Assembly (NCBI RefSeq): GCF_901765095.1
Contig: NC_044034.1
Coordinates: 62,498,339-62,562,338, forward strand
Direction: 5' to 3'
From: Microcaecilia unicolor
Lineage: Eukaryota
DNA: 64,000 bases
Below the pieces are notes generated by a model. That model saw only the letters and a program-made list of their open reading frames with translations, did not search any database and was not told where the DNA came from. Made by a program: the position numbers and the translations under genes. Shown piece after piece: positions 2,764-58,111 of the stretch (position 1 is its first letter; the number at the start of each line of letters is the position of its first letter).

Positions 2764-2901
2764 CAACTTCTTGAAGAAGCCAGAAATACAAGCAGCTTAT
2801 CTCCAGAGACATATAATTTTGTGGAGCTCATTTGGGTAGAAGCACTTGGCCACTTGGATCATATACTTCGCAAACCTGTAAACAGCATTAGTCTCAATGA
2901 T
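2764..2901 (+). CDS. PARP4: PARP4 exon, PARP regulatory helical domain part
   Basis: Acceptor 'tttctttctacag|CAACTT' and donor 'AATGAT|gtgagt'. Encodes 'QLLEEARNTSSLSPETYNFVELIWVEALGHLDHILRKPVNSISLND', in phase with the next exon. Confidence 0.65.
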
Positions 2902-2934
2902 GTGAGTTGAGTGTATTAATTATTATATTATACT

Positions 2935-3700
2935 AGTAAAAAAGGCCCGTTTCCAAAACCAATGGAACGGGCGCTAACATGTGGCTTTTTTTGTGTGTAT
3001 ATGTGTCACAGAGTTATTTTGTGTGTGTGTGTAGGTTGTTGATGTGTGTCTTTTTTTGTTTTGTTTTGTTTTTTGCTTGGGGGTTGGGGGATGTGCTGTG
3101 CTGTCCTTGGTCGCTGTTTGCTGCTGGCTGGGTCGCGGGTAATCCTTCCAGCTGGGCCGCAGCTTGTCCTGTTCGCCCACGTCCCAGATGGTGACGGGCA
3201 CGTTGTTTTCCGGCTCCTCTGACTCCATGTCAAGCGATCCCAAATATAGTCTCTGCTATAGGCCCTCTGGCACTCTTCAGTACTGGCATTAGGCATTTTA
3301 AAATTTCTCCCCCCCCCCCCCCCCCCCCCGGTCTATTTTTGCACATACCCACAGCAGGAATATTCTTCTCTTGTTCCAGTGGTGGTTCTGTGCTCTCCGT
3401 GCTGCACAGATAATGAGCCATTCTGCTGGGGAATGCTCCTCCCTTATTGTCACGTAGTTTCCTCTGATTGGTCCGTCTTATGTTGCCTAGTGTTGCCTGG
3501 GAACGGTGTTGTGATGGTCCTTTGTGTTTCAGAATGTTGAGGGTGTTTTTTCTGATTGGTCCGTCATGCGAGGGCGGGGCAGAGAGACATGGTCAGTGTT
3601 GTGGCTTCACCACTATGAATCCATGAACCCTTCAGGGAGTGACTGAGTGACTTCAGAATGTTGTCTTCAGAACGTTGAGGGTAAGTTTTATTATAGTAGA
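2935..3700. repeat. Unclassified interspersed repeat, copy 1, with a hairpin head and a shared internal 'gagggcggggcagaga' motif
   Basis: Head 'ctagtaaaaaaggcccgtttccaaaaccaatggaacgggcgctaac...tgtgtgt' recurs at 46608-46660 as 'ctagtaaaaaagccccgtttctgatgcaaatgaaacgggggctagcg...gtgtgtgt'. Both copies also contain 'gagggcggggcagaga/ca'. Confidence 0.4.
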
Positions 3701-4295
3701 TAGGGCCCTATTCAGTCATAAAGTTTCCCTCCCCTTCTCCTGGAGTTGGGGGATACCTTTATATAAGAGCGTGGTAATGATTTGTAAATGAGAACAAACT
3801 TGAATATGTTAACAAATGAGCATTCACCCTGATCTTTTTTTTTTTTTTTAGCTCCAGAAACAAATGTTTTGGGAAATTCATGTTTTGCTGAATAGAAATG
3901 GTTGTAAAAGGGCCAGTCCGGGAGCTATTTGGAGTAAACACAAACAGTGTTAGGCGCAATTAAAAAAAACCCACAAACAAAAAAGCCCAAGGATATCCAA
4001 GAGGATGAGCCACCATCGATGCTGTATTAACACTTTCTGCTCAGCACGTGGACTGGTCCACAAGGGGTGATGGACCCACACACTTAAACTCTTTTATTCA
4101 CTACCCCGAATCCTAAAACTCAGATGTATTTTGCATGCATTATTTTGTGTAAGCCACTTAGTTATAGGCGGGTATAAGCTCTATAAATAAATTTGATCAG
4201 GAGTATCTCTGGCAGTTCATGTCCCACATCTGGTGCTGTAGGCTGTAAGAATGATTTTCTTATTTTATTTTACTTACTCTCATAGCCAAATCAGC

Positions 4296-4700
4296 AAACC
4301 CAGTTTAACAACATAAGAATAGCCATACTGGGTCAGACCAATGGTCCATCTAGCCCAGTATCCTGCTTCCAGCAGTGGCCAATCGAGGTCACAAGTACCT
4401 GGCAGAAACCCAGTTAGTTGCACCATTCCATGCTACTAATCCCAGGGCAAGCAATGATTTCCCCCATGTCCATGTCAATAACAGACTGTAGACTTTTCCT
4501 CCAGGAACTTGTCCAGCCCTTTTTTTTTTACCCAAATATGCTAACCACTGTTACCACATCCTTTGGCAATGAGTCCCAGAGCTTAACTATTCTTTGAGTG
4601 AAAAAATATTTCTCCTATTTATTTTTAAAGTATTTTCATGCAATTTCATTGAGTGCCCCTGGTCTTTGTAGTTTTTGAATGAGTGGAAAATCGATTCCTC
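4296..4700 (-). mobile_element. CR1-like LINE 3' end: degenerate ORF2 C-terminus plus 3'UTR
   Basis: The reverse complement of 4540-4640 encodes a degenerate 'LDKFLEEKS' CR1 C-terminal motif. Segment 4310-4390 'ataagaatagccatactgggtcagaccaatggtccatctagcccagtatcctg...agtggccaatc' matches the reverse complement of the CR1 3'UTR at 28620-28700. Confidence 0.55.
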
Positions 4701-5749
4701 TCCACCTGCTATGCGAGTTGCGTGCCAGGTTTACATAATACTGCTTAGAGCCCAGTTGTAACATTCACACGTATAAGTGCTAATATTCTGTAATCTTAGA
4801 GCGTAAATGGTGTTTACATTTAGGCACTAAGATTATAGAATGAGGGGTATAGGGGATTATTTTAGAAGCATCTCCATGCGCAGATAGTGGTATCTGCACA
4901 TATAGATTGCATACACGTGTAAATGCCAATTTTGGAAAGCTGCTGTTTCCACGGGGAGGTTTACACAAGGAGGCATAGTCTGGGCATGCCTTGAATGGGA
5001 TAAAAATCTACACGTGTATTCCCCGTTTTACAAAGGAAATAATGTTTATTGGAAAAAATGTCCTGGTTAGGTTTTACACCAGCTCAAAGGCATGCACAGA
5101 TTTTTAGAAAGCACATGTTTTGGCTTGGGCTTTATACTAGGGATTAAGAGGGTAATTATTCTCTTTAATGACTTCACTACTTTATGGGCGGTACTCACTG
5201 GACAGCTACACGTGGAAGCACCACTATTTCTACATGGAAGTGACAACAGTTTTATGTGGAAGCTGCCAGGCTTCTGACGCTTATTTTTTTCCATGTGTAG
5301 AATGGCTGCTTTGTCACATCCACGCGCACTCCTGCATGTCCCTATCGATATTTTACAAAAGGAGCCTGTCGTTTAACATACTTGTCCTTTTTCTTGTTGT
5401 ATACTGTTTTCATTTGTGTTTTTGGTTTAAGTTTAAATAAAAACAACTTGAAAAAAATAAAGCCTTTGGTAGTATAGCCTTTTGTAAGATACTGCTGAAA
5501 TTGAACACGACCAAAATTCAGATGCCCTGGTTTGGATCTCAGTGTTCTGCTGAAATGGGTCTTCAAGCCTCATTTCATTCCCTTCTCATTTAATACTATT
5601 ACCACAGAGCTGAGCATGCATACCTCCACCACCCATCTCTTCCTAATTCTTTTTTTATTCAGAGGCTTTCACCTCCAACTAAAACTGCTTTGCTTTTTAC
5701 TGTAAAACTCAAAGGAAAACTCATATACACTGTGAAGAAACTGTGTGTT

Positions 5750-6530
5750 TTAAGCCTGTAAAATGTATTGGACATTTTCCTGCATTATGTCCTGAAGTGT
5801 ATTTCTCCTACTTGGCCAGCAGGTGGTGTTTCTTTGCTGTAAAGCTGTTATGGAGAAATGAATGTTCTTTTCTTTAGTTTTAGTACACAAACAGGAAGCA
5901 AGAATCAGTATATGTTTGAAATTTTCTTGTTCTGGGCTCTGATTGGCACAGGAGCTCATTTTATTTGGAGGCTTTTACTCTAGTCTTAGCCAGGAAGAAG
6001 AGAGAGACAGATCTCTTTGCTAAGGCCCTGCAAACAGTTACATTTGATAACTTGTGAGCAGCTATATGTCCTGATCTTTCCAAGTACGTTTTAGAAAGAA
6101 AACAAATATTTGGCTAGTGTTATAATTGATCCATATTTCAGTTACCTGTTATTGTTTGCTGATTGCACATTTTTCTGAACACTGTTCATTTTTAAAAGAC
6201 AATAAACAATTTAGTTTATTACCTCTTTGTCTGGACTGATAAGGAATCCTGGTGGTTTGTGCGTTGGTTCTGTGAGTGCTTTCTGGGAACTGTGGGACCA
6301 CTGGAAGTGTGGCCCCAGTAACCTAGAAATCAATGGATATAATTTGAGAGTGGGAGACTTGCCCAGAGGCGGTTGTGACCCAGTCGGTAGGAGGAGGGTG
6401 CTAGTGTAGAGCACAAGCAGAAGGTGCAAGCGGACCTGAGCTGTGCAGGGGATAGACCCTCTAATTGGCGGTGGGGTAACCGCAGTTGGGTGGCTAGGCA
6501 TTTCATGACATCCACCTTATCCCCAATTAT
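5750..6530 (-). repeat. Unclassified interspersed repeat family R1, ~0.8 kb. Further copies lie at 60830-61580, with partial copies at 14290-14620 and 41440-41760.
   Basis: Long collinear similarity between 5760-6520 and 60830-61570, for example 'gaagtgtatttctcctacttggccagcaggtggt', 'ctgtgggaccactgg.. cccagtaacctagaaatca' and 'gacctgagctgtgc.ggggatagaccctctaa'. The ORF translations 'RGSIPCTAQVRLHLLLVLYTS' at 6211-6501(-), 'SIPSTAQVHLHLLLVLYTS' at 41328-41756(+) and 'SIPSTAQVCLHL' at 61281-61571(-) are the same repeat read as protein. Confidence 0.55.
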
Positions 6531-7161
6531 CCTGCCAGGCTAGTTTCACTAGTCCCACAGCCAGAGCCCTCTTAACAAGTCTCATCTGCGTTTGCTTTAC
6601 AATTTTTCTTTAATCTCTCTGATTTGTCTTCCTGTTTCTGACTCTGTGGTTCAGACCCCCCCCCCCCCTTACAAATCCTTGCTCAGACAGTATGTTCAGA
6701 AAGCTCAAAGTAGCGTCACCAGGCCAAGGACTGGAGAGGAACCTCAGCCATACACACTGACTGTAGGGATTGATAGTAGTATTAGCCATCTTTCTTTCAT
6801 TTCCCTTGCCTGAGTACACCACTTCCATAGTTCATTCAGCCTGACTAATCCTGATGGATGGGATCGCGAAGTCTTGATTTCACTGTGTGGCTACACTTAA
6901 CCATTGTAGCTTGAGACCTTGTGCAGTTTTATAACCACCAATGTTTTGTTCTTCTCATTGTTTTGTAGTATATTGATGCAAATTCTGAATGTGATCAGTT
7001 TGAGAACAGCATACCATCCACAATCCATGTATCTCAATGTGAAAAGCTATCTAGATATGTGTATATTTGTTTTCTGCCATTAGGTATCTGTTATAGAGAT
7101 TATTTTTTATTTATTTTTCCTGTAATCTTTTTTTTTTTTTTTTTTTTTTTTTTGTTTAAAG

Positions 7162-7335
7162 GTGAGCAAAGGTGAAGGTATTTTGTTTCATGTCAGAAAG
7201 GCTCTGGATGATGGGGCTTCAGCAGAAGTTTTGAAACAGATGATGATGGAATTCTATCGCATTATCCCTCACAAAAATGGAATCGATTATAATGTTAACA
7301 AAAAGCTCTTGTCTTCCAAAGAGGACTTATGTCAG
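7162..7335 (+). CDS. PARP4: PARP4 exon, PARP regulatory helical domain
   Basis: Acceptor 'tttgtttaaag|GTGAGC' and donor 'TGTCAG|gtaaaa'. Encodes 'VSKGEGILFHVRKALDDGASAEVLKQMMMEFYRIIPHKNGIDYNVNKKLLSSKEDLCQ'. Compare the PARP1 helical-domain motif 'FYTLIPHDFG'. Confidence 0.8.
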
Positions 7336-10899: not shown

Positions 10900-13690
10900 G
10901 TACAATTGTGTAAATAATATAACATACTTATATGGAACAATCATTGGTTTCTGTTATCTAGGTTTTTTCCTCCCCCCCCCCCCTCCCTCCCTCCCACATT
11001 TCTCCCCCCCCAAACCTTTGTGCTTATAAACAGAATATTTATCTCTTTGTTTGTACATAAACATCCAAATAAAAATTAAATTCAACTAATAACTCTTGTT
11101 GTATGTTGCTGATTGGTTGCCTATCTTGATCCACCGAAATCGCAGATCACATACCTAGCCGTTTAATATTGCGGCAGTATCCTCTTGTAGACCAAGGTTA
11201 AAGATAATACAAAACAACCATCTATTTTGTGTTTTAGAAGCTTTTCTCCCCCCTATGCCCCCCATCCCTTCCCCCTCCTTCTCAGGTTGGTATACTTTAT
11301 TAACTTTATTAACTTCAAAATGACCTGAGCCTCAGTCATCTAAAACCTTCCCTGAACTGGGAAATAACCGTAATATATATTGACCTCGTTAAACAAATGT
11401 CAGGTATGGTCTTGAGATCAGGGCCTCATCCATCCTTTAACCTACCTAGCCAAGACTCTTTCCTTATTCCCCCAAAATCCCCCCCCTCCCCCCCTCCCTT
11501 CCCCTCCCTGCGCATTGCTTATAGTCCAATTCCCTTCACTGGTCCCAGGGAAGTCTATTCAAGATCTGACTTCTCGCCTTAGGTGATATGGTGTTTATAT
11601 ATGCCCCCCAGATTGCTAGAAACCTCCGCTGCCTTCCCGGCGACAGTCCCGCTCCTCTAGACTCCCATGTCAATAATTCCTGGAGTCTATTCCTCCAGTG
11701 CCAAAAGGAGGGTGGGCAATCCTCAGTCCAGTGGAGTAAGATGCATTTTTTCCCCAATATGCAGGCCTTGCTGAGAAACAATTTCTCTCCCCTCGTGGTT
11801 CCCATCCAGAGTCTGGGCATACTGAATATAGCTCTTTCAAATGTTATGCTGATTGTGCGCCCCAACACCCTTGTCAGGTATCTACCAATTGCCGCCCAGA
11901 ATGATGATATTGACCTACACTGCCAAATCCCATGAAATAAGTTTGCCTCCAACCTGAGACACTTCCTACAGTTCTGTGTGGTCAAGACTCCTGCTCTAAA
12001 AGCTTGTCTCTGCGAGAAATAGGCCCGATGGATAGTGCGGAAGTGACACTCCTGTAATTCTGCATTGTGAACTATGGTTACCCCACTCTGAAGAGCTGAC
12101 GATATTAACTGTGTAGAGATGTTTCTGCCTGACTCTATACTCCATCTATGTGCCACCTCTGTCAGGTCCCGTTCCCTTGCAAGCCTACCTAATTTATTGT
12201 AAAACCAGGACACTGAGATTTGTCCCGCTGCATCTCCTTCTAATAATTCTCTTAATTGTCTCCCAAATCGTGGGTGTAGACTATCTGGTGGGAGGGTATG
12301 CACATAGTGATATAACTGCCTGTACGCCAGCCAAGTGGCCGTTTTTTGCCCACACTTCTCCAAGAAGTCAGCGTACGAGAGCAAGGATCCATCTTCCCTT
12401 ACCAGCTCGTCCAACGAATGGACTCCCCTACTCTCTAATAATCGGAAAATCCTATTTTCATCTCCGGGCCTGAATGAAACATTCCCCCTCAGAGGCAACC
12501 ACACACTTCCTCTACTATCCTGCCCCCAATACATGAGCACCGTTTTCCACACATGTCTCATTGACTTTAATAGCACACTTCCTCTTACTTTTTCTGGTAA
12601 ATCTCTCCTTGGAGAGTGTATCAAAGATACCAGGTGCCAAGGCCTAAAGAGGTCTCGCTCAAGCTCCACATGTGTATAAGTATCTGAGTCCATCAACCAA
12701 TCTTTCAAATGTCTCAACAGACACGCCTGGTTATACTTGCGGATGTCTGGGAGTCCTAAGCCCCCCATCTTTTGTGCCCCTAATAGGTATTTCCATCTCA
12801 CTTTAGGTTTTCTACCCCCCCAGCAGAATTTCATCACTAATTTCCTAAGGGTTTCTAAATCTTTTTTGAGTAGCCACAGAGGAAGGGTTTGTAGAAGATA
12901 GAGCCATCTAGGGAAGACCATCATTCTGAACAAATGCAATCGTCCCAATAAAGTCAATGGCAAATTTGCCCAGTGCATCAGTTGCTCCTTTGTCTCCCGA
13001 AGGAACCTTTGCACATTAATGTCATATAACCTCGTCGGGTCCATTGCCAGCTGGATTCCTAAATATTTAAATGATGCGTTTGCCCACTGCAATGGGAATC
13101 CCTCTCCCCACAACCTCCGCAAATCATCTGAACCAGCCAACGCTTCTGATTTTAAAAGATTTAATCGGAAACCAGAAAAGTCCCCATATTCCGCCAGACT
13201 CTCCATCAGGTAGGGGAGGGAATCTCTAGGTTCAGTTATCAATACCAATAGGTCATCTGCAAACGCAGCTGTTTTAAAAAGAAAGTCCCCTATATGTACC
13301 CCCTTTACATCGGGATTAAGCTGCAGTTCCCGCAGCAGTGGATCCAGAGTTAGAACAAATAGCAGAGGGGAGAGAGGGCATCCCTGTCTAGTTCCTCTTC
13401 TAATCTTAAATCTATCTGAAGTTATACCATTTGCGTATACACGGGCTTCGGGGTCTTTATACAATGTTTGCACAGCTTCATTAAACCAGCCTTCTATCCC
13501 GTAAGCCTTTAATATACCAAACATGAAGCCCCAGTCCACTCTGTCAAACGCTTTTTCAGCGTCAAAGCTGATGAGTAAAGCTGGGTGTCCTTCCCTTCCA
13601 ATTGTCTCCAAAGCCGCCAGAATCCGTCTTATATTTTTGGCTATAACCCTTCCCCGAGTAAACCCCACTAATTGTTTGTATTTTATTAGC
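10900..13690 (-). mobile_element. L1-like LINE, 5' truncated, with no endonuclease domain, carrying the ORF2 RT and C-terminal domain
   Basis: ORF 11536-13668(-) of 710 aa has RT motifs 'LISFDAEKAFDRVDW', 'GTRQGCPLSPLLF' and 'FADDLL', plus the C-terminal Cys motif 'CRKCLRLEANLFHGIWQC'. A 3'UTR lies below 11536. Confidence 0.85.
11536..13668 (-). CDS. L1-like ORF2 reverse transcriptase, TE-encoded, 5' truncated but an open frame of 710 aa
   Basis: The RT motifs FDAEKAFD, QGCPLSP and the FADD box are all present in a single open frame. Confidence 0.85.
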   Translation of the reverse strand: MGFTRGRVIAKNIRRILAALETIGREGHPALLISFDAEKAFDRVDWGFMFGILKAYGIEGWFNEAVQTLYKDPEARVYANGITSDRFKIRRGTRQGCPLSPLLFVLTLDPLLRELQLNPDVKGVHIGDFLFKTAAFADDLLVLITEPRDSLPYLMESLAEYGDFSGFRLNLLKSEALAGSDDLRRLWGEGFPLQWANASFKYLGIQLAMDPTRLYDINVQRFLRETKEQLMHWANLPLTLLGRLHLFRMMVFPRWLYLLQTLPLWLLKKDLETLRKLVMKFCWGGRKPKVRWKYLLGAQKMGGLGLPDIRKYNQACLLRHLKDWLMDSDTYTHVELERDLFRPWHLVSLIHSPRRDLPEKVRGSVLLKSMRHVWKTVLMYWGQDSRGSVWLPLRGNVSFRPGDENRIFRLLESRGVHSLDELVREDGSLLSYADFLEKCGQKTATWLAYRQLYHYVHTLPPDSLHPRFGRQLRELLEGDAAGQISVSWFYNKLGRLARERDLTEVAHRWSIESGRNISTQLISSALQSGVTIVHNAELQECHFRTIHRAYFSQRQAFRAGVLTTQNCRKCLRLEANLFHGIWQCRSISSFWAAIGRYLTRVLGRTISITFERAIFSMPRLWMGTTRGEKLFLSKACILGKKCILLHWTEDCPPSFWHWRNRLQELLTWESRGAGLSPGRQRRFLAIWGAYINTISPKARSQILNRLPWDQ

Positions 13691-14040: not shown

Positions 14041-14201
14041 TTGATAAGGGACATGGTTAATGTCTGTGAAACAAGCATGTCGAGCCCTAATCCACCCGCT
14101 CTTGCTAAATATCGTGCTTTGAGATGCAAAATAGACTATGTGGGACCGGACAGTGATGAGTTCCTACAAGTTGAACACCAGGTGCTGCAAAACAATCATA
14201 G
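14041..14201 (+). CDS. PARP4: PARP4 exon, end of the helical domain and start of the catalytic domain
   Basis: Acceptor 'ctatgtgcag|TTGATA' and donor 'CATAG|gtaagc'. Encodes 'LIRDMVNVCETSMSSPNPPALAKYRALRCKIDYVGPDSDEFLQVEHQVLQNNH'. Compare PARP1 '[24 protein letters not shown]'. Confidence 0.8.
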
Positions 14202-14289: not shown

Positions 14290-14620
14290 ACACATAATGC
14301 CTGGAGTGCTGCCTCTAGCATCTACCTAGAGTTAACCTGTGGCCACCTGAAGGGTCCTACCCAGCACTGCCCAAGCCTGCTTGCACCTGCGCATGTGCAC
14401 CTACACTAGCATACCCTCCACCACCTGCTGGGTCCTACTTGCCTCTGGGCGAGTCTTCCACCCACAAGTTATTTTCCCAGTGGTTTCTAGGGATACTGGG
14501 GCCACAATCCTAGGGGTCCCACAGTTTCCAGAAAACCACTCGCAGAGAACAGAAACTGCCAGGATTCTTAATTAGTCCAGGACAACAGAGCTAACAAACC
14601 AATAGGTTTATTATCACAAA
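14290..14620 (+). repeat. Partial copy of repeat family R1 in the opposite orientation
   Basis: Segment 'ctgcccaagcctgcttgcacctgcgcatgtgcacctacact...gggcgagtcttccacccacaagttattttcccagtggtttctagggatactggggccacaatcctagg' is collinear with 41500-41700 and with the reverse complement of 6240-6480. Confidence 0.5.
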
Positions 14621-16099
14621 AAAAGAACCGTGAACAGTAAAAGTTGTAAACCTAAGTAGTACTTGAGGAGATCAAGAAAAGGAACTGCTCACAGGATTTG
14701 AATAGGGTTTCAGTGCAGATTTCTACCCCCCTCCACACTCCTACTCTGAGACTGGAGAATTCTAGCACCTGGCTAGATCTTGGGCTTCAGGGCCAATCAG
14801 GGTACAGAGCATTAGCCCTAAGGGTGTTTGACCAATGGCATTGCAGATTACTCTTGGGGTTTTCATCTTTTCTTTGGGGAAGATCAGCTAAAAGAAAAAT
14901 GGACCTCCGCTACAGCTATAGTGCAGAGGACAGACACCACCTGCTGGCTAAACACGGAAATTACCATGAAAGAGAAAAAGTGTCATAAGTCAACATTACA
15001 AATTGCAAGCATGAAAGTCTTTTGTTTCACCACAGGTTCATTCTAAGAACTTACTGCTTTTTCTTCTGGGTGCATTAAAATCTGTCATACTGGCATGCAT
15101 AGATCTCTGTACTCTTTAATGATGACCTCTTCTAATATAAGCTCCTGAAAATAGTAAAATCTCAGGACAGAGTCTTAAAAATTTCTACTATCATAATATG
15201 GTAAAATTATGCCAGTGTGCTAATAGTGACAAGCAAAAGTAAGTTGACGACAGCAGTCGGAGACTGGAGAACCTCAGTCTTATGTGGAGATCGTTTATTG
15301 ATGAAGGACTCCCATAAGATTGAGGTTCTCCAGTTGGTATTGTAGTATTGAGTCCCTTCTTTTTTTTTGTTCTGCCTGAACTCCCACAAGTGTGACGTGG
15401 TATGACGTGGCATTGAGAGGTACGGAAGTGAAGCTGTTTGAGTCGCTGCTGGGATGATCGGTTAATGGTGATGCTTGGAATTGCTGACAGGCTGCAAGAT
15501 TTGTGTTAAAATAGCTTGTTTTTGTAGCGTAATCCTGCAGGTGAGGGTTGGATTCAAATATGATGGTTTGTTTTAAGGGTAATTTTCTTTGATTTGCTGA
15601 GCGAGGAAAAGTTTGTTTTCTGGATTTGGCTTCTGGTGGGAATTGGTGTGTATTGGGGTGTGGAAAAAGTTTTTTTTTTTTAAAGGATTTTTTTTCCCCA
15701 AATGTTTTCTTTGGTGTGCTTTTTTCTGGTAACTCTGCAAAGCTCAGGTGGTGTATCAACATGCAGGGTTGCCACTGGGACAGTGTTGGGGAGTGGAATA
15801 AGTTATTTGGGTATGGCATGTTTAAAGGTAATGTTTGGGAGGGGTATTGACCCCCACACCTCCCCAAATGATCTAGAAGGGGAAAGGGAAGGAGATTAAT
15901 TGTCCTAGTGTGCTGTGCATTTTTGGTTATGGGTGGGAATTCTCCTCCCTAGTATGGTGGGAATTGTCCAGATGGGAATTGGTGGGTGGGAACTGACCTA
16001 GAACATCTCTTTAGTTTAGATTTTGAGACCCTTTTAGTTTGCAGGTATATATTTAAGGTCTGCACCTTTAATTCACAGGATAATTTACGGGGAAGTTCC

Positions 16100-16858: not shown

Positions 16859-16996
16859 TGACATTCCAGTGAAAGTCTTGCAAGTATACAGAGTTGGCAG
16901 AATGAATGAAACAGCAGCATTTCAGAGCAAGTATGGCAATATTCAGTCCTTACTCCATTCCTCTTCTGTTTGCAACTTTGTTGGCATTCTCTCTCG
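16859..16996 (+). CDS. PARP4: PARP4 exon, catalytic domain
   Basis: Acceptor 'ctttatag|TGACATT' and donor 'TCTCG|gtaagt'. Encodes 'DIPVKVLQVYRVGRMNETAAFQSKYGNIQSLLHSSSVCNFVGILSR'. The phase is consistent with the previous exon and with the next exon at 25895. Confidence 0.8.
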
Positions 16997-18984: not shown

Positions 18985-20612
18985 CTAACTAAGGCCCAGA
19001 TGATCAAAAGCCCTGCGCTGTTCCAAACAGCGCCCTAAAAATAGCGCCGGGACAGCGCAGGGCTTTTCTGCATCGATGATCAAAGATAATGCATACAAAT
19101 CTAAGCAGCGCTATTATCTTTGATTATCATGTTGACGTGCGGGAGAATTGCGCTCGAGCATGCGCTCAGCACAATCCTCCCGCACTTCTTTGACAAGTCT
19201 GGGCTGTCAAAAGCCCAAAACTGTCAGTGGCCTGCCGATCCCCCAACAAAGAGGCCACCGCCGCCGGCCAAACCGACTCCCACCCTCCCACCCAGCGATG
19301 GGGGGGGGGGCTGGAGGTCCAGTGGACCTCCGGTCTCCCCGACGACCCCCCCCATGTTCACGGAGGGCTGGAGATCCGGTGGTTCTCCAGCCCCCCCCAC
19401 GAACCCCCAGAGGACTTGGTTGCCGGCTTTAGAGAAACGCTGCCCTACCCTCCCATCTGCGACGGGGGGGGGGGGGGGGGGCTGGAGGATCGGTGGGTCT
19501 CCAGCCCCCCAAACCCCCAGAAATCGTTGTGATCCACCGGACCTCCAGCCCACCCCAACTCCTCCCCCCCCCGGCGTTCTCCACAAATCCCTGGTGGTCC
19601 ATGGTGACACTTAACCCACCCTCCTCCCTCCCTCCCGGCCCCCCTACCTTTGTTGGAGGAGGGACGCAGCCTGCATGCCTCCCTCCTCTTCCTTTCGACG
19701 CTCAGCCCCGCCCATTGCATCCTGGGATGTGCTGGGAGGGGCTACATACCATATAAGGGAGCGATTCCCTTACATGGTATGTAGCCCCCGCCCAGCGCAT
19801 CCCAGGATGCAATGGGCGGGGCTGGGCGCCGCCATTTTGAAGCGGCGTCGAAAGGAAGAGGAGGGAGGCATGCAGGCTGCGTCCCTCCTCCAACAAAAGG
19901 TAGGGGGGCCGGGAGGGAGGAGGGTGGGGTTACGTGTCATCACGGACCACCAGGGATTTGTTGAGAACGCGGGGGGGGGGAGGAGTTGGGGTGGACCTCC
20001 AGCCCCACCCCCCTTGTTGGTAGATTACAGCCCTTGGCCGGAGGTGGCCACAAGGATTTCTTGGGGTTTGGGGGGCTGGAGGCCCACCGAACGTCCAGCC
20101 CCCCCCCCCCCCGGCGCTGGTGGGAGGGTGGGACAACGCTTGGCCGGAGGCGACCACGAAGATTTCGTGGGGGGGGGGGGGGTTCAGGGGAGGGTCGGAT
20201 CGTTTGGGGGTGGGGGGGACCGGAGGTCCACCGGACCTCCTGTCCCGTGTGCTGTTGCCTTGGGGGGGAACGGGGGCCTGCCAGCATGCAACTGCATGCT
20301 GGACAGGGCTCACCATTCCTCCCCAATGATCCGCAAAACCTAACGCCAGCTTGGAGCTGGCGTTGATTTTGCTGCGGCCAGCGACCCAATCTTTGGCGCG
20401 CTGGTCGCTGATCATTGGGGATGAATGCGTTAAGCGCCAATTAGCATGCATTTGCAAGCTAATTGCGCTAGAAGCCCTGTTTAGCATGCATTTGCATGCT
20501 ATTTGCGCTGAGAGCCCTCGAGGGCTCTGATTATGGGTCGGCTGCAAACTCTGGTTCTAGTATGGCGTTAACAGCCTCTAGCGCCAGAGTTTGCTTTTGA
20601 TCATGAGGGCCT
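18985..20612. repeat. GC-rich long imperfect palindrome, an inverted duplication of about 1.6 kb centred near 19770, with a central ~55 bp-arm hairpin and termini 'CT(A/T)AGGCCC..ATGATCAAAAG'
   Basis: Segment 19560-19690 is the reverse complement of 19840-19980, for example 'ggcgttctccacaaatccctggtggtccatggtgacac' against 'gtgtcatcacggaccaccagggatttgttgagaacgc'. The central hairpin is 'ccccgcccattgcatcctgggatg..ggctacataccat ataagggagcgattccctta catggtatgtagcccccgcccagcgcatcccaggatgcaatgggcgggg'. The termini 'ctaaggcccagatgatcaaaag' at 18989 and 'cttttgatcatgagggcctaag' at 20594 are inverted. Repeated palindromic units such as 'ctggaggtccaccggacctccag' and long G and C homopolymers occur throughout. 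Confidence 0.65.
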
Positions 20613-21061: not shown

Positions 21062-21360
21062 CAGGATCGGGAGGCGGGGCTGGTGGTTGGGAGGCAGGGA
21101 TAGTGCTGGGCAGAGTTGTACGGTCTGTGCCAGAGCCGGTGGTGGGCAGCGGGACTGGTGGTTGGGAGGCGGGGATAGTGCTGGACAGACTTGTACGGTC
21201 TGTACCAGAGCCGGTGGTTGGGAGGCAGGGCGATGGTTGGGAGGTGAGGATAGTGCTGGGTAGACTTACACGGTCTGTGCCAGAGCCGGTGGTTGGGAGG
21301 AGGGGCAGGTGGTTGGGAGGCGGGGATAGTGCTGGGCAGACTTATACGGTCTGAGCCCTG
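21062..21360. repeat. Tandem repeat (minisatellite) with a period of about 77 bp and about 4 copies
   Basis: Unit 'ggtggttgggaggcggggatagtgctgggcagacttgtacggtctgtgccagagccggt' is repeated four times with minor variants. Confidence 0.8.
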
Positions 21361-24214: not shown

Positions 24215-24470
24215 GCAACCCTCCTCTCCCCGCCTACCCTCCCAGCACCAGGCAGGCAGGCCTCCCTCCCAGCACCAGGCATCCCTCCCTCCCACCAAGC
24301 ACCAGGCCTCCCTCCCTCCCACCCAGCATTCAGCATCAGGCCTCCCACCCTCTCTGCCACCCAGCACCAGGCCTCCCTCCCATCCAGCATCAGGCCTCCC
24401 TCCCTCCGAGCACCAGGCTGCCCGCCCTCCCTCCCTCCTAGCACCAGGGCCCCCCCCTCCTCCGAAATTT
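24215..24470. repeat. Minisatellite with a unit of about 21-24 bp, 'cctccctcccagcaccaggc'
   Basis: There are about 10 tandem degenerate copies. They give Pro/Ser-rich pseudo-ORFs on both strands. Confidence 0.8.
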
Positions 24471-25894: not shown

Positions 25895-25993
25895 TGGTTT
25901 ACTTCTACCAAAGATGGTGGTAGAAGATCATGGCTTGGAGAGGACAGATATTGGGAACCTTGGCAGCGGCATTTACTTTGGTGATTCCATCAG
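25895..25993 (+). CDS. PARP4: PARP4 exon, catalytic domain
   Basis: Acceptor 'cctcatcctcacag|TGG' and donor 'ATCAG|gtctgg'. Encodes '(R)GLLLPKMVVEDHGLERTDIGNLGSGIYFGDSI'. It continues ...GILSR from the previous exon. This matches my recollection of vertebrate PARP4 'GLLLPKVVEDRGVQRTDVGNLGSGIYFSDS'. Confidence 0.85.
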
Positions 25994-39192: not shown

Positions 39193-40331
39193 AGATTGGA
39201 GTGTTTTCCGACCCTCATCACGCAGGACGAAGGGGCTCTTCTGCATCCCAGCCTCCGGTCCCTGGCTCTCACGGCTTGGATGTTGAGAGCGTAGACTTTG
39301 CCTCTTTGGGTCTGTCAGAGGGTGTCTCCCGCATCTTGCTTGCTTCCAGGAAAGATTCCACTAAGAGGAGTTACTTCTTTCTGTGGAGGAGGTTTGCCGT
39401 CTGGTGTGACAGCAAGGCCCTAGATCCTCGCTCTTGTCCTACACAGACCCTGCTTGAATACCTTCTGCACTTGTCTGAGTCTGGCCTCAAGACCAACTCT
39501 GTAAGGGTTCACCTTAGTGCAATCAGTGCATACCATTACCATGTGGAAGGTAAGCCGATCTCAGGACAGCCTTTAGTTGTTCGCTTCATGAGAGGTTTGC
39601 TTTTGTCAAAGCCCCCTGTCAAGCCTCCTACAGTGTCATGGGATCTCAATGTCGTTCTCACCCAGCTGATGAAACCTCCTTTTGAGCCACTGAACTCCTG
39701 CCATCTGAAGTACTTGACCTGGAAGGTCATTTTCTTGGTGGCAGTTACTTCAGCTCGTAGAGTCAGTGAGCTTCAGGCCCTGGTAGCCCAGGCCCCTTAC
39801 ACCAAATTTCATCATAACAGAGTAGTCCTCCGCACTCACCCTAAGTTCCTGCCAAAGGTCGTGTCGGAGTTCCATCTGAACCAGTCAATTGTCTTGCCAA
39901 CATTCTTTCCCCGTCCTCATTCCTGCCCTGCTGAACGTCAGCTGCACACATTGGACTGCAAGAGAGCATTGGCCTTCTATCTGGAGCGGACACAGCCCAA
40001 CAGACAGTCCGCCCAATTGTTTGTTTCTTTTGATCCCAATAGGAGGGGAGTGGCTGTGGGGAAACGCACCATATCCAATTGGCTAGCAGATTGCATTTCC
40101 TTCACTTACGCCCAGGCGGGGCTGGCTCTTGAGGGTCATGTCACGGCTCATAATGTTAGAGCCATGGCTGCGTCGGTAGCCCACTTGAAGTCAGCCTCCA
40201 TTGAAGAAATTTGCAAAGCTGCGACGTGGTCATCTGTCCACACATTCACATCTCATTACTGCCTGCAGCAGGATACCCGACGCGACAGTCGGTTCGGGCA
40301 GTCAGTTCTTCAGAACCTGTTTGGGCTTTAG
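39193..40331 (+). CDS. DIRS ORF3, tyrosine recombinase (YR), the C-terminal part of the long 37458-40331 frame
   Basis: The YR region has 'SKRSYFFLWRRFAVWCD', 'VTSARRVSELQAL' (the catalytic R box), 'GHVTAHNVRAMAAS' (the H-x-x-R box) and 'ATWSSVHTFTSHY' (the catalytic Tyr region). The exact YR start inside the overlapping frame is uncertain. Confidence 0.8.
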
Positions 40332-40861
40332 GATCCAACTCCACCCCCCGAGGGCCCTGTTTGTTCTGTTCCAGGCTGCACTCTCAGTTAGTTGGTAAAT
40401 TTTTTTAGGTCAATCTCAGTTATGTCCTCGCCGTTGCGAGGCCCAATTGACCATGGTTGTTGTTTTGAGTGAGCCTGGGGGCTAGGGATACCCCATCAGT
40501 GAGAACAAGCAGCCTGCTTGTCCTCGGAGAAAGCGAATGCTACATACCTGTAGAAGGTATTCTCCGAGGACAGCAGGCTGATTGTTCTCACAAACCCGCC
40601 CGCCTCCCCTTTGGAGTTGTGTCTTCCCTTCTCTTGTCTTGCTACATATGAAACTGGCCGGCTCGAGCCGGTTTCGGGCGGGAAGACGGCCGCGCATGCG
40701 CGCGAGGGCTAGCAAAGGACTTTGCTAGTGAAGATTCCGATTGGAGGGGCTGCCGTGGACGTCACCCATCAGTGAGAACAATCAGCCTGCTGTCCTCGGA
40801 GAATACCTTCTATAGGTATGTAGCATTCGGTATACGCAAGTTGTTCCTGTGGGAGCGGTTT

Positions 40862-41439: not shown

Positions 41440-41760
41440 CTGTCACGAACCCACCTGGGGTTACCCTGCGGCCACTTAGATGGTCTATCCCCAGCACAGC
41501 TCAGGTCCACCTGCACCTGCTTCTTGTGCTCTACACTAGTATTCTCCTCCCACTGACTGGGTCACAACTGCCTCTGGGTGAGTCTCCCACTCACAGATTA
41601 TCCCCAGTGATTTCTAGGTTTCTGGAGCCACACTCCCAGTGGTCCCACAGTCCCCAGAGAGCACTCACAGACCAACACACAAACCACCAGGATTCTTTAT
41701 CAATCCAGGCAAACAGGGTGAACAAACAATTTGTTTATTCTCTTAAAAAATATTGAACAG
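41440..41760 (+). repeat. Partial copy of repeat family R1
   Basis: Segment 'ccagcacagctcaggtccacctgcacctgcttcttgtgctctacactagtattctcc...gtgatttctaggtttctggagccacactcccagtggtcccacag' matches the other R1 copies. Confidence 0.5.
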
Positions 41761-42699
41761 TGGAACAAAATAGTTCAATTGGCAAACAATAACAGGTAAC
41801 TGAAATATGGATCAATTATAACACTAACTAAACACTTACATACTGCCTAGAAAGTACCTGGGGAGATCAGGGCATATATCTGTTCACAGAGCTTCAGCAA
41901 AACAGATCTCTCTCTCTCTCTTCTTCTCCCAGGCTGAAACTGAAGCAACAGCCAGCATCTGCTGGGTAATTTCAAAACTCCAGGCCAGTCATAGCCCAGA
42001 ACAGTTAAGTTTCAAATAAAAACTGGTTACATCACTACAGGCACTTCCTATTATCTGTGTTCCAAATAAAAGAAAGAGATGTCAGTCCTCTGTAACAGCT
42101 TAAAGCGTAAACATGCACGATCTGCTGGCCAAACAGGAGAAATATACTTCAGACATATTTAAGACAGGAAAATATCCAATACATTTTACAGACTTAAAAC
42201 CCACTGTTTCTTCACAGGCACATATACTTACATGCATGTAAACAGTTACAGAGTTTTTTTAAAAGGCCTTTTCTGCCCCTTAGCATCAGCTCTACACACA
42301 GAAAATCTTTTATAAAATTACCCCCACAGTGGATAGATGGTGCTGCAATTATTTAGAAAGGGTCTTGACACCTTGTTGGACAAATGAGCATCAACTACTT
42401 TTTGTAGATCCTCTGATATTTCTTTTGACCTTAGAATGAGTTGCTACTAAATTTTTTTTGGTGAAGGCCAAACTCAGAATCTTTTAGATGCCCAAATATT
42501 CTCATGCAGATAGATTCACTTTGCAGAACAGATTACTTGTTACCCAGTTATTTAAGCACTTGAATTTAATTAGCCAATTAATTGTGCTAAGGGAGGTAGG
42601 ATACACTTACTGTTCACACACCGATGGTAAACTAGTCTTATTGTTCCTACTTTGTAAATTATAGTTTCTCATGAAACATGGAATTGTTTAATTTATACC

Positions 42700-43956: not shown

Positions 43957-44140
43957 TACCTGCATCAAATACTCAAAACCCAGTGAAACAGATGGCTCCC
44001 GGCTCTTAGTGGTATGTAGCGTGGCTCTTGGGAAATGCATGGAGCTGTACGAGACAGATTTTTCATTAGCCAAAGCCCCAGCAGGATATCAGAGTGTACA
44101 TGGGGTTCGGAAAGCACCAGGCAGCCTCTCGGACTTTGAG
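43957..44140 (+). CDS. PARP4: PARP4 exon, catalytic domain
   Basis: Acceptor 'ttattatgcaaag|TACC' and donor 'TTTGAG|gtatga'. Encodes 'STCIKYSKPSETDGSRLLVVCSVALGKCMELYETDFSLAKAPAGYQSVHGVRKAPGSLSDFE', which is highly similar to my recollection of human PARP4 'STSIKYSHPGETDGTRLLLICDVALGKCMDLHEKDFSLTEAPPGYDSVHGV'. Confidence 0.85.
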
Positions 44141-44924: not shown

Positions 44925-45074
44925 GATGATGAATTTGTTATATATAATACAAACCAGGTCAAAATGGGATATATTGTAAAATTTTGCCTGGAGGAAGACA
45001 ATGTGAAAGAGTTTTTTCCTGATATAAGTATTACTGAGGTGGCAGAAAGAGTTCCATGTCATTTACAGTCAGAA
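44925..45074 (+). CDS. PARP4: PARP4 exon, end of the catalytic domain
   Basis: Acceptor 'ttttttatag|GATGAT' and donor 'TCAGAAG|gtaaag'. Encodes 'DDEFVIYNTNQVKMGYIVKFCLEEDNVKEFFPDISITEVAERVPCHLQSE'. Compare 'DDEFVVYKTNQVKMKYIIKF'. Confidence 0.85.
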
Positions 45075-46604
45075 GGTAAAGAATATTTTTTAATTACACT
45101 TTTTTTTTCCAATCTAAAATATTTTTATTTTGCATAACTCTGTAATAAGAGCACATCTCGCTCACATTTGCCCACGCAGGGGCTCATAAATACTTTACTA
45201 CACTACTACATCTAAAACCAACTCATCACTATATCCACTACAACAAATAACAAGATCATCACAAAGACAACCACCACAGCCCAACTAAACCTTGTACTCC
45301 TCAGATACAACATCCCCCTCCCCTTCACTCTCACCATCTCCAGCTCCAACTCAGCTTAAGAGCACCTCGTGGTTTTTTGGAGCACTCTCTCTCCCCCTCC
45401 CTCTCCACTCCCCTCCCCCCTCCTATAAGGCTCCATTGACCTAAATACTTGTCAATCGCTGTTGTAAGCGAACCCATCTTCCCTTATGTCGCCATGTACC
45501 CTCCCTACGGTAAGCCGTTAGTCTCTCCATTTGTATTAACTGACCCAATTTACATTTCCAATCACCCAATGTCGGGGGATCTACCCTCTTCCAGTACTGT
45601 GCTATGAGGCACTTAGCTGCTGCCAGCTCCCAGCGTAACCATTTCCGCTCCTCCCAAGATTCCCTCTCATTATGTAAGCCCAAGAGACACACCAAAGGGC
45701 TGCACACCAAGGATGATCCAATCAACTTTACTAATACTTTCATAACATCTTGCCAAAAAGGTACCACCCCGGAGCATGACCACCATATATGTATAAAAGT
45801 ACCCCTCTGTGAACCACACCTCCAACATAGATCCGACGCACTGGGGTACATCCTCTTCAATCTCTCAGGTGTGTAATACCATCGGGATAAGACTTTTATA
45901 TGCATTTGCCTGCACCAAAACACATACCGAGGCTTTCTGCACCTCCCCACAAATAACTTCCCACTCCTGATCAGAAAAACAGTAATTTAAATCCTCCTCC
46001 TAAGCCCCCTGAAAACCAAATGGCCTAGGGTCATATTCCCTCAAAAATTTGTATATCACCAGTATTGGTCTGGGAACCTTCTTCAACAAAAGCCACAGAT
46101 TTTCCAGACTCTCCCTTTCCTGTGGATTCCCCCCCCCCCCCAACCCACTGTCCCCATTAACCTAAATTTGTTTATTAATACATTGGAGGTCATTTTTATC
46201 ACTATTTTAATTACTATATTTGTATTTTTAAATTATTGGTATTGTCTTTTACATACACACTTCTTATAAACATTCTTTTAAAACAATTTTATTTTTTTTT
46301 TGGTTAAAATTAATAATACAAATTTTTTTTGGTTAAACTTAATAATATGGTACACAAATGAATATAGGAATTTAAACCCATGTTTACATGTGTTCATTTG
46401 ATTCATTCATCAGAATCAGATATGGATGTTTATACATAGATATGTTCGGTTTATATGTGGTTGGTTTTTATTTATAGATGTTCTTGAACATTTTCACCCA
46501 TTTTGATGGATGGATTTTCTTAAGTTTGTACATACTTTATACACACACATATGTATTCCTAAAGTATTTCTAATTATTTGGTAATGTCCTTTTTATATAA
46601 ATAC

Positions 46605-46900: not shown

Positions 46901-46995
46901 CATGGTGATGCTGTTTTATCATTACACTATATGTTGCCTATGTTGTTTTTATTATCATTATTATTTTGTAATTATTATTATTATTCTCATTTTTA

Positions 46996-48803: not shown

Positions 48804-48925
48804 AGATTTCTTTGGATAACAGCTCATTGCACAAGATAAAAGCTGGTCTTCTGGATACTTCTGGTAACTCTATCCCCCTTAAAGATATTCATATTAAAGG
48901 AAGAATAATGGATCTAATTGCACAG
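48804..48925 (+). CDS. PARP4: PARP4 exon, linker before the VIT domain
   Basis: Acceptor 'ctattcatatttag|AGATTT' and donor 'GCACAG|gtaatg'. Encodes '(E)ISLDNSSLHKIKAGLLDTSGNSIPLKDIHIKGRIMDLIAQ'. Compare human 'KAGLQDASGNLVPLEDVHIKGRIIDTVAQ'. The phase links exon 44925-45074 to exon 57980. Confidence 0.8.
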
Positions 48926-54189: not shown

Positions 54190-56820
54190 ATTGAGGTCTG
54201 AGGGGGCAGTATTGTTATCCATCCCTAATTTGGCTAGGGTACGTTTTGAGGAGGCTCGGAAGAGTTCCTTATGTTTGGCAAGACCTGTGATATACAATCG
54301 GCTGTTCCATAGCGTCCCACAGATCAATCCAGAGACTTGTGGGTTGCGTCCCTCTACCAGCAGGTTGGAATTGGTTCGTCCGATAGTAGACTCGTTTCTG
54401 GAATCTCCTTGCAAATCTCCCGCCAAGGTGTGGGCAGTTCGTCACACCCTCCTCAACTTACAACAACTGGGAGCTGTCCAGCCTGTACTCCCAGCAGAAA
54501 GAGGGTGCGGTCGATACTCCATTTATTTTGTGATGCCAAAAAAGGGCGGTTCTTGGCGACCTGTCCTAGATCTCAAGTGCTTCAACAGGTCCTTACGGGT
54601 TCGGCATTTCCGCATGGAAACCCTCCGCTCGGTGATCGCAGCGGTACAGCCAGGAGAGTTTTTGACATCTCTCGATCTCAAAGAGGCCTATTTACACATT
54701 CCAATTTGGCCTCTCCACAGTCGTTTTCTTCGCTTTGCAGTGCTCTGTCGTCATTTTCAATTCAAAGCGATGCCCTTCGGCCTAGCCACAGCACTTTGGA
54801 CTTTTGGAAAAGTCCTTTCTGAGATAGGCCGCCACTTCGACAAGGACCTTGGGAAAAGTGGCGGCCTATCTCAGAAAGGAAGGGATTCAAGTCCATCCTT
54901 ATCTAGATGACTGGCTTGTGTGGGCGTCTTCTTTCGAGGAGATTCAATGGGCAACCAACAGAGTGGTCAGGTTGCTTCAGTTGCTTGGTTGCGTGATCAA
55001 CTTCCCAAAGTGCAGCCTTACGCCTTCCCAGACGCTGGAATACTTGGGAGTGTACTTCGATACCCGAACAGAGATAGTTTCTCTTCCTTCAGCTTGAGCG
55101 CAGCGGTTGCAGGGTCAGTTGCGAGCTCTGTTCCAAACTCCGAACCCGCAGACTTGGGACTATGTACAAGTTCTGGGTTCCATGGCCTTCACCTTGGACG
55201 TCGTAAAGTGGGCCAGAGCTCACATGCGCCCCCTGCAGTGGCACCTTCTGAGCCATTGGTCTCCTCTCTGGGAGGATTACGAGGTTCAGGTGCCATATTC
55301 GACCCGTCTGCACACAATCATGCACTTGTGGTTCATTCAAAAGAATCTGGTGTCGGGCATTCTTCTGCAAACCCCAGAATGGAAGATCGTGACCACAGAT
55401 GCGTTGCTGTCTGTTTGGGGGGCTCATTGCCTCCAACAGACGGCCTAGGGCATTTGGACCTCGACGGAGGCGTCTTGGTCCATCAACCGCTTGGAGTTGT
55501 AGGCGATTCGTCTGGCCCTTCGGGAGTTACTGTCTCTTCTGCGTGGTTGCCCAGTTCGAGTTCTCTCGGATAATGTGACGGCGGTCGCCTACGTAAACCG
55601 TCGGGGACACCGGGTGTGCACCACTAGCGTGCGATGCAGCCCTGATTTGCCATTGGGCAGAGACTCATCTCTCTCTCTTGACGGCGGCTCATATAGCGGG
55701 GTAGAGAATATGCAAGCGGACTTTCTCAGTCGCCACCAGTTGGAGCCGGGGGAGTGGACACTCTTCCCTCTGGCCTTAGATCAGATAGCTTCACGTTGGG
55801 GGATGCCGGTGATGGACTTAATGGCCACCACATTCAATGCAAAGTTTCCCCGTTTCTTCAGCAGAGGAAGATAGCTGGGCTCAGAAGGCATCCATGCTCT
55901 TCTACAACCTTAGCCCAGGGGCCTGCTCTATGCCTTTTCCTCTGGCCTATAGTGGGCAGGTTACTGACTCACATTGCCAGTCATTCCGGTCAAGTGATCC
56001 TGGTGGCCCCAGATTGGCCCAAACGTCCCTGGTAAGTTGATATGGTCAGGCTCCTGTTCGATCGTCCGCTCCGGCTCCAGGCGCAGGATGGTCTCTTGCT
56101 GCAGGGACCAGTCATGATGGAGGATCCCTCCCCCTTTGGTCTTACGGCCTGGCCCTTGAAAGGGCGAAGTTGAGAAGGAAAGGATATCTGGATGTGGTTA
56201 TCGCTACGAAGCTTCAGGCTCGGAAAAGATCCACCTCGATAGCTTATGCTAGGGTGTGGCATACTTTCGATTCATTGTGTGCAAGTTCGGGATTGTCAAC
56301 GGCTTTGGCTTCGGTATCGGTTATCCTCGTATTTCTTCAGGATGGTGTACAGAAATCATTCTCATTGAGTTCTCTTAAGGTGCAGGTGGCAGCTCTGGCA
56401 TGCTTTAGAGGCCAACTTCAGGGGGTGTCGATCGCCTCCCACCCGGATGTGGTTCGTTTTTTGAGGGGCGTAAATTGGTTGCGTCCTCCGCATGTGCCAG
56501 TTCTGCCATCCTGGAACCTTAATCTAGTTCTCAAAGCGCTTCAGCGTCCTCCTTTCGAACCCTTATGGGGATTACGGTTAAGGATTTTACCTTGAAGGCA
56601 ATTTTCCTAGTAGCCGTTACTTCAGCTCGGAGAATTTCAGAGTTGCAGGCTCTTTCTTGCAGAGACCCCTTCCTGCGTTTTACAGAGGCAGGAGTATCGA
56701 TTAGGACAGTTCTTTCGTTTTTGCCCAAGGTGGTTTCTTGTTTCCATTTGGGGCAGTCTCTGTATTTGCCGACTTTTCGCCGGGAAGACGTGGGATGTAC
56801 CCAAGTAGTCCTCAAGTAGG
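54190..56820 (+). mobile_element. DIRS-like retrotransposon copy 2. It is 5' truncated with no gag, frameshifted, and its YR is truncated at 56819.
   Basis: ORFs 54191-54910 ('YSIYFVMPKKGGSWRPVLDLKCFNRSLRV...LDLKEAYLHIPIW'), 54849-55097 ('HPYLDDWLVWA'), 55107-55448 and 55575-55874 (RNase H 'VTTDALLSVWGAH', 'AVAYVNRRG'), 55754-56035 ('VILVAPDWPKRPW') and 56170-56819 (YR N-terminus and middle, 'VTSARRISELQAL') lie in successive frames. Together they are collinear with the intact copy at 37315-40331. Confidence 0.8.
54190..56820 (+). pseudogene. DIRS RT, RNase H and YR pseudogene segments (copy 2)
   Basis: Multiple frameshifts separate the domain pieces and the 3' end of the YR is missing on this strand. 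Confidence 0.7.
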
Positions 56821-56829
56821 GCGGGACAC

Positions 56830-57480
56830 CCCCAACCCGGCAGAAATCACCGACTAGCCAAACACCGCATCCTGCCGAGCTGCCACATCCACCCGATAAT
56901 GATTAGTGAACGTATGGACCGAAGCCCATGTAGCGGCTCTGCAGATATCTTCCAGAGAAACCAAACAGGACTCTGCATAGAAGGAAACCTGAGCTCGCGT
57001 AGAATGAGCACGAATTTGCGCAGGGGCTCGCTTGCCCAATGCCATGTAGGCCAGTGATGGCCTCCCTCACCCAATGGGCTATGGTGACCTCGGAAGCCAT
57101 ATGACCCTTCTTACTGCCTCAAAAAAGGACGATGGTCAGAGAGACAAAAGTTATTCGTCACCTCTAATCCAGAGCCCCCCCACCCAGATTTACTGTCTGC
57201 AGTTTTGTTTTGGTTGGTTAGTTTTTTCGGATTTCGTTGTTCTGAATGTTCCTTCATTTGATTAAATAAGAAAAACAAATAAATTTGGAAGTGGTGGAAG
57301 TATGTTGGGCATTTGGTCTGACAATGTCAGGAGAGTTTTCTATTGTTTCCATTCCACTGCTTTGGTATCGTTCATACTGAGGTTTACTTGGTTGCACAGG
57401 TCCACATATAGCAAATCTCTGAGGTTCTCTCTGTCTCCACCTGCTGGTAGAGGGACACAACCCACAAGTCTCTGGATTGA
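56830..57480 (-). mobile_element. Inverted DIRS fragment abutting copy 2 tail to tail. It holds the YR C-terminal catalytic segment and a piece of the region just upstream of the RT.
   Basis: ORF 56854-57045(-) 'IRAHSTRAQVSFYAESCLVSLEDICRAATWASVHTFTNHY' is homologous to the copy-1 segment 'HNVRAMAASVAHLKSASIEEICKAATWSSVHTFTSHY'. The reverse complement of 57400-57480 matches 54330-54400 'cccacagatcaatccagagacttgtgggttgcgtccctctaccagcaggt'. Confidence 0.6.
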
Positions 57481-57979
57481 TCTGTTGGGAGTAATGGAAA
57501 GAAAATGATCAGGTAAGAATTAATTTTTCCCTACTGTTTCGGAGACATGACATTATTTAAGATGCATCTTCAAGGGCTACCTTTTTCCTGATATTTGACC
57601 ACCAAATGAAGGGGGGGCAGGATGATTGACAATCTGGTGACAGATGTGCATATTTGTGTCTTAGAGGGGAAGATCCCCTTTGTAGAGTAGGGAGGTTGAT
57701 GGGGGAAGGTGTTTGTTTTATGTGTTTTTTTATTGTGAAATGTTTTGGATGGAAGCAGACAATAAATGTTTAAAACCATTACTGAAAAACCTGAATAAAG
57801 TTATTGGCCATTTACAGCATGTTCTTCATGTTCAGTGTCTTGTTGATACTTGATAATATTGAACTTGAGTGTAATATATTTGTGCATCTAGGAGTGTGAT
57901 CATCATATGATATAAAAATTTCGGTAGCAGAGTTTTTCACTGAGGACCAGCATGACAGCTAGTTCTCCTTCCATTTCAG

Positions 57980-58111
57980 GTAGTGGTTTTTCAGACATAC
58001 ACCAACTTATCCAGCATTCCCATTGAGGCAAAGTATGTCTTTCCTTTGGATGGCACTGCAGCTGTGTGTGGTTTCGAAGCCTTCATCAATGGAAAACATA
58101 TCATAGGAGAG
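57980..58111 (+). CDS. PARP4: PARP4 exon, start of the VIT domain
   Basis: Acceptor 'ccatttcag|GTAGTG' and donor 'GGAGAG|gtaaat'. Encodes 'VVVFQTYTNLSSIPIEAKYVFPLDGTAAVCGFEAFINGKHIIGE', a canonical VIT-domain N-terminus. The PARP catalytic plus VIT combination is diagnostic of PARP4. Confidence 0.85.

Follow-up and report, generated by a model that had tools for sequence, protein, structure and literature searches.

What gene, if any, is carried by the 64,000-nucleotide stretch of the Microcaecilia unicolor genome at positions 62,498,339 to 62,562,338 of contig NC_044034.1? A preliminary description of this stretch (the window, numbered here from its own first letter), made from the letters, had read positions 2764-58111 as the interior of a vertebrate PARP4 gene, with nine short exons on the + strand separated by introns packed with transposable elements. 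We asked how that reading fares against protein, structure and domain databases. On the sequence evidence, the locus is very probably an internal piece of vertebrate PARP4 (vault PARP), read from left to right on the + strand, and the proposed identity is supported by a spliced product that is collinear with residues 249-682 of the human protein. The gene is already known and is not a discovery, and its genomic setting is ordinary.

The exon model rests on nine segments, each of which is bounded by an AG acceptor and a GT donor (nine of nine exons), with start phases of 0, 0, 0, 2, 2, 2, 0, 1 and 0. When concatenated they give 1299 nt, or 433 codons without a stop, which bears out the earlier claim that the exons lie on the + strand, have AG/GT boundaries and agree in phase. 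Exon 1 (2764-2901; residues 1-46 of the spliced product, approximately human 248-293; phase 0 to 0) completes the N-terminal helix and opens the helical domain, and was matched in tblastn by seven orthologues. The helical domain continues in exon 2 (7162-7335; residues 47-104; phase 0 to 0), where there is a weak Pfam PARP_reg match over residues 37-107, and ends in exon 3 (14041-14201; residues 105-158; phase 0 to 2), which also begins the ADP-ribosyltransferase (ART) fold, with the Pfam PARP match starting at residue 142. Three exons carry the ART fold onward: exon 4 (16859-16996; residues 158-204; phase 2 to 2), with the codon for the histidine of the catalytic triad at 16956-16958; exon 5 (25895-25993; residues 204-237; donor GTCTGG), with the triad tyrosine codon at 25974-25976; and exon 6 (43957-44140; residues 237-298; phase 2 to 0), with the codon for a PARP4-specific threonine at 43958-43960. 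The fold closes in exon 7 (44925-45075; residues 299-349; phase 0 to 1), which contains the catalytic glutamate codon at 44931-44933 and then enters the linker. Exon 8 (48804-48925; residues 349-389; phase 1 to 0) passes from the linker into the VIT domain, with Pfam VIT_2 matching from residue 367 and VIT from residue 374, and exon 9 (57980-58111; residues 390-433; phase 0 to 0), the last PARP4 exon in the window, carries VIT as far as position 60 of the 111 in the profile. In tblastn, exon 9 is 74-85% identical to its vertebrate orthologues.

The eight introns measure 4260, 6705, 2657, 8898, 17963, 784, 3728 and 9054 nt, and the exons account for 2.35% of 2764-58111, in agreement with the earlier figure of about 2 percent. 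Every junction coordinate that had been proposed stands except the end of exon 7, which falls at 45075 and not at 45074. We rejected an end at 45074, where the "donor" would be GG and the frame would meet a stop 11 codons into exon 8. The five peptides quoted in the preliminary description were all found on the + strand, at 25935-25991, 43997-44107, 44925-44966, 57980-58006 and 58028-58111. Beside exon 2 we also observed a run of about 30 T (7129-7154) that stops seven bases 5' of the acceptor AG and forms an unusually long polypyrimidine tract; the run may derive from the poly(A) tail of a retroelement in antisense orientation.

The assignment to PARP4 is carried by similarity along the whole product. 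Among all PDB chains searched with phmmer, the best match was human PARP4 in chain 11jf_P, whose residues 249-682 align with query residues 2-433 in one collinear stretch at an E value of 3.3e-179, and the human PARP4 catalytic-domain crystal chain 8sx1_A scored 1.4e-139. The fold can be regarded as settled, because the match to solved PARP4 structures is at about 64% identity. In Pfam, the PARP catalytic domain was recognized at 5.3e-34 over residues 142-289 of the spliced product, and VIT (PF08487) at 8.6e-15 over residues 374-433, corresponding to profile positions 1-60 of 111, with VIT_2 at 2.2e-10; the described order of a PARP catalytic domain followed by the start of a VIT domain is therefore present. 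VIT lies C-terminal to the ART fold on a single polypeptide joined by phase-consistent junctions, with its first half alone inside the window. N-terminal to the ART fold, the product aligns with human PARP4 residues 249-370 and, from spliced residue 34-36, with the helical domains of PARP1 and PARP2. Since the Pfam PARP_reg match is below threshold, the call of a regulatory helical domain rests on this alignment to the solved structures of PARP4, PARP1 and PARP2, which agrees with what had been described.

Could the segments be something other than host exons, assembled by chance or from pieces of transposons? The window is full of transposon ORFs (open reading frames), which might lend themselves to such a reading. 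Chance is excluded, however, because the spliced product matches human PARP4 at 3.3e-179; moreover, the nine segments are ordered, lie on one strand, have compatible phases and AG/GT bounds, and none of them falls within the transposon and repeat mask. We consider this explanation virtually impossible.

A more substantial question is which member of the PARP family the exons represent, as PARP1, PARP2 and PARP3 share the helical domain and ART fold with PARP4. Chains of PARP1 and PARP2 do match spliced residues 34-293, with E values of 1e-17 to 1e-24, and the histidine-tyrosine-glutamate (H-Y-E) triad is common to PARP1 to PARP4 (PMC10711553). In the same phmmer search, however, PARP2 reached 3.5e-24, PARP1 approximately 4e-21 and PARP3 2.9e-09, in alignments that end with the ART fold, whereas the E value for PARP4 is lower by about 155 orders of magnitude, and no other match runs through the linker into VIT. 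The preliminary description had named a paralogue without VIT as the finding that would overturn it, and these scores, together with the presence of VIT behind the ART fold in one phase-consistent product, point the other way. What distinguishes PARP4 from other PARPs, according to published work, is its possession of VIT, vWA and the MVP-interaction domain, or MVP-ID (PMC10711553). Named proteins that combine PF00644 with a VIT family go almost without exception by the name "PARP4" or by that of a poly(ADP-ribose) polymerase of unspecified type, apart from a few labelled "hypothetical protein", and none among the database matches was assigned to another PARP paralogue; PARP1/2-like matches carry WGR and PARP_reg and are devoid of VIT. 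The product further has threonine at the position of PARP1 K903, as PARP4 does and where PARP1 and PARP2 have lysine. An origin from another paralogue is extremely unlikely, and we regard that reading as effectively refuted already.

Homologues outside the structure database led to the same gene. A protein search that covered 5.8 billion proteins returned PARP4 as the best named matches, from birds (64% identity), a lizard (62%), frogs (55-56%) and a teleost (51%); the PARP4 matches listed are partial models of 757 residues or fewer, with no full-length protein of about 1700 residues among them, not even the human one, so that the lack of a same-species match in this search carries little weight. 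We used 12 homologues from that search, including two metagenome proteins, as tblastn queries against the window, a comparison that the preliminary description had proposed for vertebrate PARP4. The PARP4 proteins of birds, lizard, frogs, teleosts and shark matched exactly the nine exons, in order, and no others.

The domain order is shared with human PARP4 (vault PARP, ARTD4), for which there are structures of the catalytic domain (PDB 8SX1 and 8SWY) and of the protein in the vault (9BW6 and 11JF): helical domain, ART fold, linker and VIT follow one another in both. The two differ by a few linker insertions or deletions of one to three residues. VIT is also found in ITIH proteins, which are homologous to this part of PARP4 and have only VIT and vWA in common with it (PMC10711553); in the product of the window, by contrast, VIT comes after an ART fold.

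Conservation extends to the residues of the active site. The catalytic triad of human PARP4 consists of H438, Y477 and E547 (PMC10711553), and these align with H191, Y231 and E301 of the spliced product. Human T484 is a PARP4-specific residue standing where PARP1 has K903, and threonine at this position is one of the acceptor-site changes that have been tied to mono-ADP-ribosylation (PMC10711553); it aligns with T238 of the window, in the motif ISTCIKYS (LSTSIKYS in human). One difference is found directly after the triad histidine (16956-16964), where the window encodes H-S-S and mammals have H-G-S. Birds, lizards and frogs have H-A-S in this motif, and one teleost has H-S-S. We considered H-S-S as a catalytic defect and rejected this possibility, as alanine or serine stands there in the PARP4 of bird, lizard, frog and fish; the change lies within the normal PARP4 range.

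We also considered whether the locus might be an unprocessed pseudogene or a lineage-specific duplicate of the "PARP4-like" kind, and not a functional PARP4 orthologue. Entries named "PARP4-like" exist in several genomes (Meleagris, Sceloporus, Leptodactylus and Pan), only nine exons are visible, and identity to every orthologue at hand is modest, at 64% or less. Many of the "PARP4-like" entries, however, are short partial models. The identity values are also those expected of an orthologue: over the 433 residues, the product is 63-64% identical to human PARP4, 61-64% to birds, 58-60% to lizards, 55-57% to frogs, 52-57% to teleosts, 43% to a bivalve and 38% to sea urchin, with 60% to shark over the conserved half only. 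Because human and bird PARP4 are themselves 63% identical in this region, 63-64% marks an independent vertebrate lineage and gives no sign of decay; by the same equality, the host is a vertebrate about as far from mammals and birds as these are from each other. A neighbour-joining tree of the PARP4 region was divided between two placements: of 300 bootstraps, 97 made the window the sister of birds and 96 the sister of birds and mammals together. By these comparisons the host may be an amphibian, a non-avian reptile or a lobe-finned fish. A processed copy is contradicted by the presence of introns. For a decayed copy, we would have to reconcile 433 codons that have neither stop nor frameshift, 16 of 16 canonical internal splice sites, and an intact catalytic triad along with the other invariant motifs. 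A pseudogene or duplicate is in our judgment very unlikely.

Several points nonetheless count against our identification of an intact PARP4 orthologue. The Pfam PARP_reg match, at 22.1 bits, is under the gathering score of 26.8 bits. The donor at the boundary of exon 5 and intron 5, GTCTGG, is the weakest of the set, and the splice junctions rest on protein collinearity and splice consensus. Approximately one quarter of the PARP4 coding sequence is visible; since this is all that can be inspected, an inactivating lesion elsewhere in the gene, or a second PARP4-like copy, may exist.

The limits of the gene within the window were sought in both flanks. A relaxed tblastn search (word size 2, E up to 20) yielded noise and no further PARP4 exons in 1-2763 or 58112-64000. 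Profiles built from the flanking 120-160 residues of the orthologues likewise identified no exon in the flanks in an hmmsearch at maximum sensitivity, where the best E values were 1.1 upstream and 1.9 downstream, at approximately 3 bits. A faint tblastn match at 1520-1585 was rejected, as it lies within an L1-like ORF and duplicates residues that exon 1 already encodes. The suggestion that further VIT exons could lie in 58111-64000 was thus not upheld by either search. Because no exon was found in 58112-64000, the remainder of VIT must lie beyond position 64000, and the intron after exon 9 must be at least 5.9 kb long. The exon preceding exon 1 is upstream of position 1, the BRCT and WGR-like parts of the gene are upstream of the window, and the vWA and MVP-interaction domains are downstream of it.

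The introns themselves justify the description of them as packed with transposable elements, which we consider fair. At least 40% of 2764-58111 is recognizable transposon or dispersed repeat, a lower bound that combines transposon-protein homology with within-window repeats; none of it overlaps an exon. When the window was compared with itself, 10.5 kb proved to have a diverged counterpart, or more than one, at another position. Searches for intronic RNA genes in the window identified none with Rfam at gathering thresholds, and ARAGORN found no tRNA.

Fragments of long interspersed nuclear elements (LINEs) and other reverse-transcriptase sequences occur in several places. Upstream of exon 1, the + strand of 1-1750 holds the tail of an L1-like LINE ORF2 (ORF 5-1747), an open frame of 580 residues in which Pfam found no match; it ends with CX2CX8HX4C, which we take to be a feature of L1-type ORF2, and by eye it resembles an ORF in intron 2. 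The latter, a LINE fragment without its 5' part (11536-13668, - strand), is an open frame of 710 residues with a C-terminal cysteine-histidine motif and a Pfam RVT_1 match at 6.5e-24. The length of these two ORFs suggests fairly recent LINE activity in the genome. Intron 5 contains a degraded LINE (30276-33704, - strand) with an apurinic-type endonuclease region at 33022-33704, recognized as Exo_endo_phos at 33366-33704 (5.2e-07) and 33022-33396 (5.2e-04), and with RVT_1 at 30929-31723 (3.2e-05). In intron 8, a reverse-transcriptase fragment (54191-55573, + strand) matches RVT_1 at 54191-54910 (2.6e-08), and the adjoining ORF at 54920-55573 had no match in Pfam.

Repeats of other kinds were seen as well. 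A dispersed repeat of approximately 800 bp is present in four copies with 70-75% identity, at 5729-6510, 41449-42217 (- strand) and 60807-61563, with a partial copy at 14324-14642. There is a 707-bp palindrome at 19435-20141 (76% arm identity), a 241-bp palindrome at 29420-29660 (86%), and, a short way before exon 1, two 119-nt arms in inverted orientation at 2193-2311 and 2477-2595 (92%); all three could be elements of the foldback type or resemble miniature inverted-repeat transposable elements. Intron 4 has two G+C-rich tandem repeats: an array with a 75-bp unit at 21069-21357 (3.8 copies, 86% match), and a degenerate repeat of approximately 27 bp at 24232-24460 that contains many occurrences of CCCTCC and CAGCACCAGG.

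Intron 5 also holds a DIRS-like tyrosine-recombinase retrotransposon of 6171 bp (34659-40829, + strand, sense to PARP4), which is apparently intact. Elements of the DIRS1 group have inverted terminal repeats, an internal complementary region, and ORFs for a gag-like protein, for reverse transcriptase with RNase H, and for a tyrosine recombinase, and each of these was found here. The terminal inverted arms (34674-34812 and 40653-40791) are 98% complementary. The internal complementary region (40492-40591) has two parts, each the reverse complement of one terminus: first that of the outermost 42 nt on the left, then that of the outermost 58 nt on the right. Accordingly, 34659-34700 pairs with 40492-40533 at 100% and 40534-40591 pairs with 40772-40829 at 98%. 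The gag-like ORF is open over 620 residues and has a weak Pfam match to LAP2alpha. The ORF for reverse transcriptase and RNase H (37315-39192, + strand) is open over 625 residues and matches RVT_1 at 2.7e-19 and RT_RNaseH at 2.5e-4. A frame of 957 residues at 37458-40331 includes the N-terminal domain of a tyrosine recombinase (Phage_int_SAM_4, 7.2e-06), and its recombinase region at the 3' end is open. Homologues of the recombinase carry the labels "Tyr recombinase domain-containing" or "Core-binding (CB) domain-containing", with E values down to 4e-129, and come from Latimeria, salamanders, turtles, caecilians, frogs and squamates. The protein search returned no near-identical match to the recombinase; the closest, from Latimeria, is only 57% identical, and in this respect the element differs from the described DIRS1 group. 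To our knowledge DIRS elements are absent from birds and mammals, and the presence of one here therefore agrees with a host that is neither mammal nor bird.

We entertained recent activity of this copy because its terminal repeats match at 98% and none of its three long ORFs is interrupted. The broader proposition, that the PARP4 and transposon families of this lineage are not yet represented in annotated protein databases and that the DIRS-like copy was recently active, seems to us unlikely. If the copy was recently active, it could still transpose or disturb the splicing of PARP4.

In human PARP4 the H-Y-E triad serves to bind NAD+, the enzyme attaches ADP-ribose as single units, and its VIT-vWA region, with the C-terminal MVP-interaction domain, places it inside vault particles (PMC10711553, PMC12280208). 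By homology to the human enzyme, the region encoded in the window would bind NAD+ through its own triad and transfer mono-ADP-ribose. As we picture the locus, its nine exons correspond to human residues 248-682: they run from the last part of the N-terminal helix through the helical regulatory domain, ART fold and linker and take in half of VIT, the first. The eight introns between them range from 0.8 to 18 kb and consist largely of LINE fragments, other dispersed repeats and a DIRS-like retrotransposon that appears to be young. We infer expression of the gene, with splicing at the predicted junctions, and the protein, like its human counterpart, would mono-ADP-ribosylate and reside in vault particles.

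For a known and conserved gene, the exon model that had been read from raw sequence was correct, apart from one junction that was misplaced by one base. The importance of the result beyond annotation is small, and it touches no open biological question. What it supplies is a set of exact exon coordinates and phases and the finding that the catalytic residues of this PARP4 orthologue are intact, while the long LINE ORFs and the DIRS-like element, apparently intact, may serve as seeds for a repeat library of the host genome.

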